Positions 18,569 to 51,073 of a stretch of DNA of 64,000 bases are shown piece after piece. The notes beneath the pieces are model-generated. The model did no database searches. It was not told the DNA's origin and saw only the letters and a program-made list of their open reading frames with translations. A program made the position numbers and the translations under genes. Within the stretch, counting starts at the first letter, position 1. Each line of letters starts with the position of its first letter. The stretch is from Shigella phage ESh25. The stretch lies in sequence record ON528735. The stretch is one strand, 5' to 3'.

Positions 18569-18901
18569 TTATTTTACTACTTTCCAGTGCTTCATGTCAA
18601 GTTTACCAACTTTTTTCATCTTCTCAATTAAGCGTTCGGCACGTTGGCGAGCTGTAACATAATACCATTCGCCTAATTCATTTTGTTCAATTTTTCCAAC
18701 GATTACTGTATTCAATTCATAAATCCAACCAGTAAAGAAATTATGAACTTGAATTGTAAAGGTGAAATCTGTTCCCATACCTTCTGTTGTTTCTACTTCA
18801 ATAATATCACCTTCAACTGCCATTAAGAACCACATAGTTTCATCATATTTACCATTGAAGCATTTAGTTTTAACTGTAGCGTTCAGATTAATCGTTTTCA
18901 T
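18569..18901 (-). CDS. hypothetical protein (110 aa)
   Basis: AAGGAG Shine-Dalgarno; own promoter. Confidence 0.55.
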   Translation of the reverse strand: MKTINLNATVKTKCFNGKYDETMWFLMAVEGDIIEVETTEGMGTDFTFTIQVHNFFTGWIYELNTVIVGKIEQNELGEWYYVTARQRAERLIEKMKKVGKLDMKHWKVVK

Positions 18902-18926
18902 TTTATTCTCCTTTGTTTGTGTAAGA

Positions 18927-18956
18927 TAATACTATCACAAAGGAACCATACTGTAA
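18927..18956 (-). promoter_or_regulatory. early promoter with inverted repeat that overlaps the downstream Shine-Dalgarno
   Basis: GTTTAC, 18 nt, TAGTAT; inverted repeat CCTTTGT/ACAAAGG, the 3' arm overlapping AAGGAG. Confidence 0.5.
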
Positions 18957-18977
18957 ACAACTTTATGCAATCTTTGG

Positions 18978-19006
18978 AAAATAAAAAAGGACTCCCGAAG
19001 GAGTCC
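18978..19006 (-). terminator. rho-independent terminator
   Basis: Perfect 7-bp stem GGACTCC with UUCG loop, followed on minus strand by TTTTTTATTTT. Confidence 0.75.
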
Positions 19007-19011
19007 TCAAC

Positions 19012-19188
19012 TTATGCTTTCTGCTTACCAAAACGAGAAGCATCATCTCGAAGAACCGCACGTGCTCGGCGCATGATCTTCTCAACAGTTTGATTGATAC
19101 GAGAGTTCGACCCACGCTTGTAGCCAGCGCGTTTAGAATCACCAACTTTCTTTTCAACTGCTTTCTTTGCTTTAGCTTGTTTTGCCAT
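19012..19188 (-). CDS. small lysine/arginine-rich basic protein (58 aa from MAKQ; track gives a 72-aa extension)
   Basis: Highly basic composition; start ambiguous between 19188 and 19230. Confidence 0.5.
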   Translation of the reverse strand: MAKQAKAKKAVEKKVGDSKRAGYKRGSNSRINQTVEKIMRRARAVLRDDASRFGKQKA

Positions 19189-19478
19189 TATAAATTCTCT
19201 TTTAAATGAAAATGCAGGACTTATTGGCATTGCCTGCGCAAGCCCTCAAGGGGAACATAGGTTTTTGGATATTTAACGACCAGGATAACCATAAACCTCG
19301 TCAACATACCACCAAGACTTACACAGATAACACTTTTCTGACGCATGATAGTAACATTCAAGAGGTACACCGTAAAACTGCCGGGGTCTTAAAACTATAA
19401 TGATTCGCAAATCATTAATCAGACAGTTCGACGGCTCCTCGATTTTAGCTCACACTAAGGCAGTGAATCTCCAATAAA

Positions 19479-19727
19479 TTACTTCAGTGTTACCACAAAG
19501 TGACGAACTGCTTTTCGTGCAGCAGAAGCCAGAGGCTTAGCATACTTAAGTTCATCTTTTTCCTGAAGCTCAGCAGCTAATGCAGTTTGAGCAGGATTCA
19601 GATGTTTGAAATAACGCAGAATTTCAAGAGCTTCGGCTTCAACATCAATAGATGCGCCATAGTTTTCGTGACCATTATTCCATGCGTTTCGTTGCAGTTC
19701 AAGAGCGTGTTGTAATTGTTTAATCAT
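19479..19727 (-). CDS. rIII: rIII lysis-inhibition accessory protein
   Basis: 82 aa, same as T4 rIII; position between genes 31 and 30. Confidence 0.8.
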   Translation of the reverse strand: MIKQLQHALELQRNAWNNGHENYGASIDVEAEALEILRYFKHLNPAQTALAAELQEKDELKYAKPLASAARKAVRHFVVTLK

Positions 19728-19874
19728 TTAAAAATTCTCGTTAGAGATTAAAACTCGGTAGTCACGTTCTTCTGAATTTCATCTTCTTTCGACAGATCTC
19801 TCAGTTGTAGACTACCACATAGAATTGTTCGGTTAACTTATTATTCCGACACCCAATTCATATTATTATTTATA

Positions 19875-20210
19875 TCACTTATAAAGACACGGAATAGCTT
19901 TATAGTGACAGGTAACGAATTTTTGTTTAATTTCTTTTGGCTGCTTAAGACCCAGAGCTACAAAAGGATGCGGAACATTTCGAATTTGACCAACTGGAAG
20001 AGAAGTCAAATCACCAACTTCGCAGAAACCTTCAGGAACATCAGGACCGACAGAGTGAACTACACACAGTTCAGGAACTTCACCTTGAACACGTTTACCG
20101 ATAATAAGTCCTGATTCTGTAACTTCTTCATCACCGGCTTGTGCGGGTTCAGAAACTAAAATAACATATTCACCGACAGCACGAATTGGTAGCTGTTGTA
20201 CTTCAGACAT
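19875..20210 (-). CDS. 31: gp31 co-chaperonin (GroES analogue for capsid folding)
   Basis: 111 aa, same as T4 gp31; middle-promoter-like element upstream. Confidence 0.85.
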
Positions 20211-51043: not shown

Positions 51044-51073
51044 ATAGTACCACAGTATGCTTTGGTTGTAAAC
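51044..51073 (-). promoter_or_regulatory. early promoter; repeated cassette (near-identical to 34358-34420)
   Basis: GTTTAC, 18 nt, TACTAT with conserved upstream AAAATTTTTTCACAAAAC. Confidence 0.5.

Follow-up and report, generated by a model that had tools for sequence, protein, structure and literature searches.

The subject of this analysis is the interval between genes rIII and 30.9 in a stretch of 64,000 nucleotides (nt) from Shigella phage ESh25 (sequence record ON528735), with the whole stretch referred to as the window and the interval as the gap. The window derives from a T6-like Tequatrovirus, and its positions 18900-19800 are 99.1% identical to phage T6. All genes here are located on the minus strand and are transcribed in the order 31, rIII, gap, 30.9, a terminator-like hairpin and 30.8. 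The features that define the locus are:

19479-19727, minus strand: gene rIII, upstream of the gap and transcribed in the same direction
19189-19478, minus strand: the gap, a non-coding interval of 290 nt from the rIII stop codon to the T4-type ATG of 30.9
19186-19201, minus strand: Shine-Dalgarno sequence AAGAG (19197-19201) and ATG (19186-19188) of gene 30.9, the start being that of the T4 annotation
19012-19188, minus strand: gene 30.9, encoding a basic protein of 58 amino acids (aa) that belongs to PHROG 1427 (function unknown)
18987-19008, minus strand: terminator-like hairpin with a C(UUCG)G loop, 3′ of gene 30.9, found by the terminator scan

An earlier note, made from the letters of this DNA, had described a gap of 248 base pairs (bp) at 19231-19478 that was free of open reading frames (ORFs). 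The gap itself stands, but its boundary at 19231 stems from the GenBank record of T6, in which 30.9 is given as 72 aa from an in-frame ATG at 19230, located in the loop of a hairpin (H5, below), whereas the T4 record gives 58 aa from the ATG at 19188. The ATG at 19230 reads ACG in Dhakavirus and Mosigvirus relatives, so the long form of 30.9 is probably an annotation artefact, and the 290 nt measured from the T4 start is the more likely extent. The gap is present in 775 phage records. The T4 gap (244 nt, record coordinates 130541-130784) is likewise unannotated, and there is no annotated gene between rIII and 30.9 in T4, T6, VR25, Bp7, PhAPEC2 or ST0. Although few viruses have been studied as intensively as phages T4, T2 and T6, the interval is unannotated in their records, and literature searches found no described transcript, promoter, small RNA or structure for it.

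Mechanical ORFs can be called in the gap on both strands: 49 aa (GTG start), 45 aa (TTG) and 28 aa (ATG) on the transcribed strand, and 64 aa (ATG) on the opposite strand. The earlier note's limit of about 29 codons therefore holds for ATG starts on the transcribed strand only. Across 27 close relatives these ORFs shift in length and frame or vanish, and they are not kept even in relatives that are 97-99% identical because 1-nt insertions or deletions (indels) shift the frames. None had a match in Pfam or PHROGs. Gap ORFs are annotated in the records of wV7 (66 aa, TTG start) and SV76 (28 and 25 aa), and judging from these sequence comparisons they are very probably spurious, which is a caution to annotators of this interval. 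A conserved short ORF starting from AUGAUG ahead of the H3 motif described below was also considered and rejected, as the T4 and T6 frames differ, the stops vary and one lineage (L027) is without the AUG.

Loci for comparison were obtained by searching rIII against IMG/VR, and 30.9 against metagenomes and IMG/VR, and from GenBank phages, and they contain at least 55 distinct versions of the rIII-30.9 spacer, of 120-416 nt. Identity was calculated against relatives from other genera (Gaprivervirus VR25, Dhakavirus Bp7, and Mosigvirus PhAPEC2 and ST0), the figure for the gap covering only the part that can be aligned to the window. The aligned gap was 87-96% identical, versus 72-86% for rIII (49-70% at third codon positions), 73-93% for 30.9 (31-63% at third codon positions), 62-89% for genes 31, 30.8 and 30.7, and 63-91% for the intergenic regions 31-rIII, 30.9-30.8 and 30.8-30.7 of the same genomes. 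The gap outscored every other segment in 9 of the 10 comparisons, the exception being L022, the most distant relative tested, in which the gap (71%) is lower than rIII, 31 and 30.9. A 30-nt sliding comparison showed a plateau of 93-100% identity from about 19460 to about 19220, falling to 71-80% at both gene ends. By these alignments the gap is the most conserved segment of its neighbourhood of approximately 2 kb, and such conservation is not general for intergenic DNA here.

On the transcribed strand, the gap can be divided into the following modules, within which a promoter-like site is embedded:

19449-19467, minus strand: hairpin HA, stem UUCAC/GUGAG with a 9-nt loop (consensus UACCWWAGU)
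19362-19440, minus strand: D1, an interrupted 17-bp long-range helix around H2, with 25 pairs in total (RNAalifold)
19398-19417, minus strand: hairpin H2, UAAUGAUU-UGCG-AAUCAUUA, 8 bp, then UAGUUUUAAG
19348-19376, minus strand: early-promoter-like site, with -35 TTTACG (19376-19371), 17-nt spacer, TGn and -10 TACTAT (19353-19348)
19307-19353, minus strand: HC, a long, imperfect hairpin with the TACTAT of the promoter-like site in its 5′ arm
19260-19309, minus strand: H3 motif, consisting of UAUGWUG, the stem GAC(G)AGG/CCU(G)GUC (19278-19302) with an 11-nt loop UUUAUGGUUAU, then GUUAAAUAUCCAAAAACC
19243-19252, minus strand: hairpin H4, CCC-UUGA-GGG, in the motif GUWCCC..GGGCUUG
19204-19237, minus strand: hairpin H5, GCAGG-(14-nt loop)-CCUGC (19214-19237), then a U-rich tail AUUUUCAUUU (19204-19213)

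Each module was tested by pair counts on alignments of distinct sequences, with shuffled and slid controls, and covariation supports five of them: HA, D1 (enclosing H2), HC, H3 and H5. In the D1 helix, GAGG.GCCGU.GAACUGUC pairs with GGCAGUUU.ACGGU...CCUC; 99.1% of cells were paired (25-63% in slid controls), and 5 of the 25 pairs showed compensatory changes, a number reached by none of 500 shuffles. The minimum free energy (MFE) structure of the single sequence has the same fold, at -25.9 kcal/mol (z = -3.0) for the minus strand versus -20.2 kcal/mol (z = -2.0) for the plus strand. The enclosed H2 hairpin has a variable loop (UGCG, UGUG, UGAG or UACG) on a stem that is kept, with two compensatory pairs in one lineage (L023). 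The H3 stem consists of 3+3 bp with a bulged G, and its loop and flanks are conserved; 4 of its 6 pairs showed compensatory changes and 90.4% of cells were paired, versus 26-56% in slid controls. A covariance model of H3 (R1) had a single match in the 64-kb window, at 68.8 bits (next best 15.1), and one match per locus among the searched loci with a gap, with none where rIII abuts the next gene. All H5 cells (100%) were paired, with compensatory changes in 2 of 5 pairs (GCAGG/CCUGC versus ACUGG/CCAGU), and in more distant aligned lineages a hairpin and U-rich tail likewise precede the ribosome-binding site of 30.9. As in H3, the loop of H5 is conserved.

Support for HA and HC is weaker than for the other covarying modules, though consistent. 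HA had 84.6% of cells paired and compensatory changes in 2 of 5 pairs (UCAC/GUGA, UCGC/GCGG, UUGC/GCAG), which is moderate support, and its folding energy is not significant. HC had an MFE of -11 kcal/mol (z = -2.2), 97.5% of cells paired and compensatory changes in 2 of 10 pairs. For H4, the earlier note had proposed a CCCC/GGGG hairpin at 19243-19253; a hairpin is present, but its stem is only CCC/GGG (3 bp) and its energy is not above chance (MFE -3 kcal/mol, z = +0.57, with 142 of 200 shuffles folding at least as well). Its stem is invariant, so covariation cannot test it, and the motif GUWCCC..GGGCUUG is found in all lineages, at differing places in the gap. Across the whole gap, the minus-strand RNA folds at -75.5 kcal/mol versus -59.8 kcal/mol for the plus strand, and D1 and HC contain G-U pairs that are invariant on the transcribed strand, both indicating that the structure sits on the sense RNA. 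The earlier note had held that a lack of covarying base pairs, or an interval absent from or not conserved in relatives, would speak against a structured RNA; compensatory changes were found in D1, H3, H5, HA and HC, and the interval is kept across genera at the identities given above.

Two pairings proposed by folding programs were rejected on inspection by eye. RNAfold paired the 8 nt at the start of the gap (UUUAUUGG) with the loop of H5 (CCAAUAAG) over a long range, but relatives that have other 5′ ends or no HA keep the same H5 loop. The helix AGGGCUUG/UAAGUCCU, proposed by RNAalifold, is broken by changes in L037 and L022 that compensate in the GCAGG/CCUGC stem. The covariance-model search suggested by the earlier note gave no family match within the gap (cmscan against Rfam 15, positions 18800-19900, E ≤ 10), and versions of the gap from relatives, including the M138 element described below, gave none at E ≤ 1. 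ARAGORN found no transfer RNA or transfer-messenger RNA gene in 18900-19800, no tandem repeats were found, and neither blastn-short nor the H3 covariance model found further copies of gap modules in the window. The terminator scan called sites only at 18987-19008 and 19034-19050, none of them in the gap; H5, with its 14-nt loop, was not called, and nor was H2, whose stem is AU-rich. An intrinsic terminator downstream of rIII was rejected on these grounds.

Comparison of the loci shows that modules are gained or lost as whole structural units, and that their order differs among lineages. L013 and L084 have no D1, L014 has no HA, and HC, a cassette of approximately 45 nt (about 19309-19353), is deleted in T4 or replaced in other phages by a longer element, M138. 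The cassette site lies right after the block formed by the -35 and the spacer, and it holds nothing in T4-type phages, HC in T2, T6, RB69 and 259 other records (262 phage records with HC), and M138 in many others. Indels among close relatives, namely the 45-nt deletion in T4, a 6-nt insert and the exchange of HC for M138, all start at this point. The structured gap is confined to loci in which rIII and 30.9 are adjacent; both the gap and H3 are missing from more distant T4-like phages where rIII directly abuts the following gene. T4, T2/T6 and F1-type phages are natural variants with no cassette, HC or M138 at one site, and provide a testable system.

M138 is absent from this window, where its counterpart is about 19309-19353. 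In relatives it is an RNA of approximately 138 nt (range 135-147 nt; for example L028:2760-2897, plus strand; L007:726-865, minus strand; L017:2849-2986, plus strand) with seven helices, in which 98.6% of cells were paired and 13 pairs showed compensatory changes, versus 3.1 ± 1.3 in shuffles and 0-3 in slid controls. Three of the four pairs covary in one of its hairpins, which has a 4-bp stem and a loop of the GNRA or UAAA type. M138 was found once per genome in 403 phage records, with most copies at least 90% identical, in phages of Klebsiella, Escherichia, Enterobacter, Shigella, Yersinia, Citrobacter, Salmonella, Serratia, Raoultella and Erwinia, and it is unannotated or overlapped by 'hypothetical protein' calls. 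An origin from the host was rejected, as no match was found in 185,579 bacterial and archaeal species genomes. From its pattern of substitutions, M138 looks like an undescribed structured RNA family.

The -35/-10-like pair that the earlier note had reported on the minus strand is present, with TTTACG, a 17-nt spacer and TACTAT, and TGn just upstream of the -10. A generic sigma-70 scan omits the site, which has 8 of 12 consensus positions by our own count against a threshold of 9. It does fit the published T4/PST early-promoter consensus of PeSL elements, TTTACW-N17-TAYWAT (PMC4122927), at 11 of 12 positions, with a G where W is expected. The pattern TTTAC-N18-TAYWAT has 11 matches in the window, this site among them, all on the minus strand, compared with 0.62 expected. 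The ten other matches (window 21994-63269, minus strand) look like textbook T4 early promoters, most of them with A/T-rich sequence upstream and TGG or TGA before the -10, and at least two (-35 at 51072 and 34386) have a GC-rich segment and T-run upstream, a terminator-like and PeSL-like arrangement. The 10 nt beside the -35 of the site in the gap are GC-rich, unlike those of the ten typical early promoters. The 17-nt spacer is as invariant as the hexamers. The -10 has been lost through deletions in T4 and L037, and in other genera a 6-nt insert displaces TACTAT and supplies TATTTT at 16-nt spacing (by eye).

The -35 hexamer lies within the 3′ strand of D1 and the -10 within the 5′ arm of HC. 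Position 19372, the C of TTTAC in the -35, is T in several relatives, and its D1 partner 19432 has then changed from G to A in three of the distinct sequences aligned for D1 (loci L002, L011, L012 and L020, of Tequatrovirus and Gaprivervirus type); one sequence has a G-U intermediate and one a mismatch. This covariation suggests that the RNA helix, rather than the promoter, is under selection. Our reading is that RNA structure would be the main constraint on the -35/spacer block, and that promoter activity, if real, would be an optional extra in T2/T6-type phages. Furthermore, with the -35 inside it, the full D1 helix can form only in transcripts started upstream of this promoter, i.e., by read-through from rIII. 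A T4 middle (MotA-dependent) promoter was rejected: no acceptable -10 lies 13-15 nt from the GCTT in GGGCTTGCG (by eye), and the mapped T4 middle promoters tabulated in the literature include none between P30.2 (128355) and P31 (131540).

The gap is non-coding, exceptionally conserved, single-copy and locus-specific, its covarying helices lie on the sense strand, and on comparative grounds it is almost certainly a functional RNA element. The earlier note had proposed a small RNA or a long structured leader for the downstream gene; a functional structured non-coding RNA is strongly supported, but the hairpin and promoter that were cited for it are its weaker parts. With moderate confidence, we favour a cis-acting structured intercistronic or leader RNA of the rIII-30.9 unit. 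The gap would be transcribed within a message running from rIII to 30.9 and ending at the terminator-like hairpin after 30.9, and its separable modules (HA, D1 with H2, HC, H3, H4 and H5) would be under tighter purifying selection than the neighbouring genes. The 290 nt of untranslated RNA would be organised by the folded domains, which may affect its processing or stability or protect it against premature termination; the last hairpin and its U-rich tail beside the ribosome-binding site would set the output of 30.9, and the embedded sigma-70-like pair may add an optional early start in T2/T6-type phages. The conservation of the gap across at least four genera, above that of the surrounding genes, and its base-pairing imply that an unrecognised RNA-level function lies between rIII, a gene that times lysis, and the gene for a small, basic and conserved protein.

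Several observations weigh against a cis-acting leader. Single hairpins are mostly thermodynamically unremarkable and the whole gap has a z-score of only -1.9, and much of the covariation rests on few lineages and few independent events. Transcription through from rIII, the 5′ and 3′ ends, processing, cis action and the nature of what is regulated are features that we infer. Homologues of 30.9 exist without the structured leader (in L039 and L119), so 30.9 expression as such does not depend on it. The leader is also approximately 93% identical in comparisons in which the 30.9 protein (gp30.9) has approximately 65% amino-acid identity, which would suit a partner less variable than gp30.9 (a host factor, for example) and is thereby compatible with action in trans as well; the comparison suggests that any partner would be a conserved host or core phage component rather than gp30.9. 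Finally, recombination among co-infecting T-even phages could raise the identity of the gap.

It is unlikely that the gap specifies an independent small RNA of approximately 135-150 nt, starting near 19341 from the internal promoter and ending near 19205 at H5 and its U-rich tail, that would contain part of HC together with H3, H4 and H5 and act in trans, for example by binding a conserved host factor or another RNA. Such an RNA would account for a non-coding sequence that is far better conserved than either neighbouring protein, as expected with a conserved host partner, and for the conserved H3 and H5 loops; the promoter class is enriched and strand-specific in the window (11 matches versus 0.62 expected), most lineages have a suitably spaced -10-like hexamer (TACTAT at 17 nt, TATTTT at 16-17 nt; by eye), H5 and its tail are located downstream, and M138 begins at the predicted transcription start in Tequatrovirus- and Gaprivervirus-type phages (by eye). 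However, D1 and HA, which are upstream of the promoter, are equally conserved and covarying, and a start at this site would cut through D1, which holds the -35, and HC, whose 5′ arm holds the -10. T4 and L037 are without the -10, no promoter-like site was seen ahead of the modules in lineages of Klebsiella, Citrobacter and Enterobacter phages (by eye), H5 and its tail form a weak terminator that the scan did not call, and no Rfam family is matched. It is doubtful that the spacer is instead a locus for modular stand-alone non-coding RNAs (D1, H3, H5, and M138 in approximately 400 genomes), processed or separately transcribed, that bind a conserved host component such as the ribosome or S1, RNase E, Hfq, RNA polymerase or a defence protein; if true, they would add a new class of RNA effectors to the virulent phages that are best studied. 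That the gap encodes one or more unannotated small proteins, as in the records of wV7 and SV76, is highly improbable: ORFs of 28-64 aa can be called on both strands and two GenBank records annotate such ORFs, but 1-nt indels alter their frames and lengths among relatives that are 97-99% identical, Pfam and PHROGs hold no match, no convincing Shine-Dalgarno sequence was seen ahead of them (by eye), and substitutions pair across helices, without codon periodicity.

The gap could also act at the level of DNA, as a cassette of the PeSL type in which a stem-loop and an early promoter serve as transcription punctuation and as a crossover point, with its identity due to recombination and not to RNA function, which we consider distinctly unlikely. 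PeSL (Arbiol et al. 2010, PMC2839356; Comeau et al. 2014, PMC4122927) is the closest named concept, and the gap shares three of its five defining features and lacks two. The likeness consists of a stem-loop and AT-rich sequence (apart from the GC-rich 10 nt beside the -35) followed by a sigma-70-type early promoter in an early-gene intergenic region, with H2 and its T-run (UAGUUUUAAG) ending 21 nt upstream of the -35 of TTTACG-N17-TACTAT (11 of 12 consensus positions), and of insertions, deletions and replacements between close relatives that begin at the promoter, the T4 deletion, the 6-nt insert and the exchange of HC for M138 all starting right after the -35/spacer block. PeSL junctions have been described in the same way, including 'degraded' PeSLs in which the -35 and stem-loop are kept and the -10 is lost (PMC4122927). 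In contrast, a PeSL has a Shine-Dalgarno sequence and start codon near its promoter, whereas here the start codon of 30.9 is 160 nt downstream of the -10, with HC, H3, H4 and H5 between; PeSL copies are dispersed and able to recombine, whereas the hairpins and spacer of the gap are single-copy, with only the generic promoter hexamers recurring. In length the conserved block far exceeds a PeSL, and its conservation is above that of the surrounding genes; its plateau of approximately 240 nt reaches H3, H4 and H5 well downstream of any promoter. Two neighbouring intergenic regions are not so conserved, and the record of a relative annotates an early promoter and terminators there. The compensatory changes and sense-strand G-U pairs, which include the -35 in its covarying helix, indicate selection on RNA pairing. 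We therefore do not class the gap element as a PeSL.

A cis-acting leader also has parallels among structured RNAs. T4 messenger RNAs (mRNAs) carry several structured leaders or operators, including the gene 32 leader pseudoknot, the gene 43 operator hairpin and the gene 26-25 intercistronic structure. Like the T4 leaders (reviewed in PMC3014915), the gap is a sense-strand non-coding structure upstream of a T4 gene, is kept among T-even phages and has a hairpin near the ribosome-binding site; unlike them, it is modular, much longer (290 nt, at least five helices) and predicted from sequence. It also resembles riboswitch or attenuator leaders and ribosomal-protein leaders, in being a long conserved leader whose hairpin and U-rich tail precede the ribosome-binding site for a protein that is very small and very basic. 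It differs from them in that it matches no Rfam family, that no alternative terminator/antiterminator pairing was found in it, and that it is better conserved than the protein, whose homologues exist without the leader. The endoribonuclease RegB was considered as well. RIII protein is reported to modulate its activation (PMC9409239), and the RegB/S1 cleavage-site consensus in T4 early mRNAs is GGAGRAYARAA (PMC3014915, PMC1702504). Two GGAG motifs are located in the 5′ part of the gap, directly downstream of rIII, one just upstream of HA (19469-19472) and one base-paired in D1 (19435-19438), but neither fits the extended A-rich consensus by eye, and a RegB-site reading was rejected for this mismatch. 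Secondary structure protects against RegB according to the same review (PMC3014915), which would place the motif at 19435-19438 in a protected context.

Further observations concern the sequences that flank the gap. The gp30.9 core S.R.GYKR..N.RI is invariant in all aligned homologues; searches of Pfam, NCBIfam and PDB sequences gave no match to gp30.9 and so nothing that would independently support RNA binding. A 30.9-like gene is retained, without a structured gap, in more distant T4-like phages (L039:2735-2869 and L119:1495-1773); it begins 10 nt past rIII in L039, and follows gene 31 in L119 with an apparent early promoter of its own. Over the 3′ end of 30.9 and its terminator, a sub-threshold match to the Rfam family Atu_C8 was found at 18973-19056 on the minus strand (31.4 bits versus a gathering score of 50, E = 4e-4). 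Membership was rejected, as the alignment of the equivalent match in L007 suggests that the terminator hairpin and U-run drive the score, and the site is outside the gap. On the plus strand, TATAAATT at 19189-19196 fits the T4 late-promoter motif TATAAATA at 7 of 8 positions, and would direct antisense transcription into the gap and rIII; the match could be due to chance. In two IMG/VR contigs, L046 (positions 2397-2623; 3300045988_074297) and L047 (2974717474_000001), the 3′ part of the gap, with H3 (2417-2465) and the ribosome-binding site and ATG that follow, continues in frame into rIII residues 43-82. The resulting fusion, MPISPAFSFKREFIMEKDELKYAKPL..., could be a rearrangement, a duplication or an assembly artefact.

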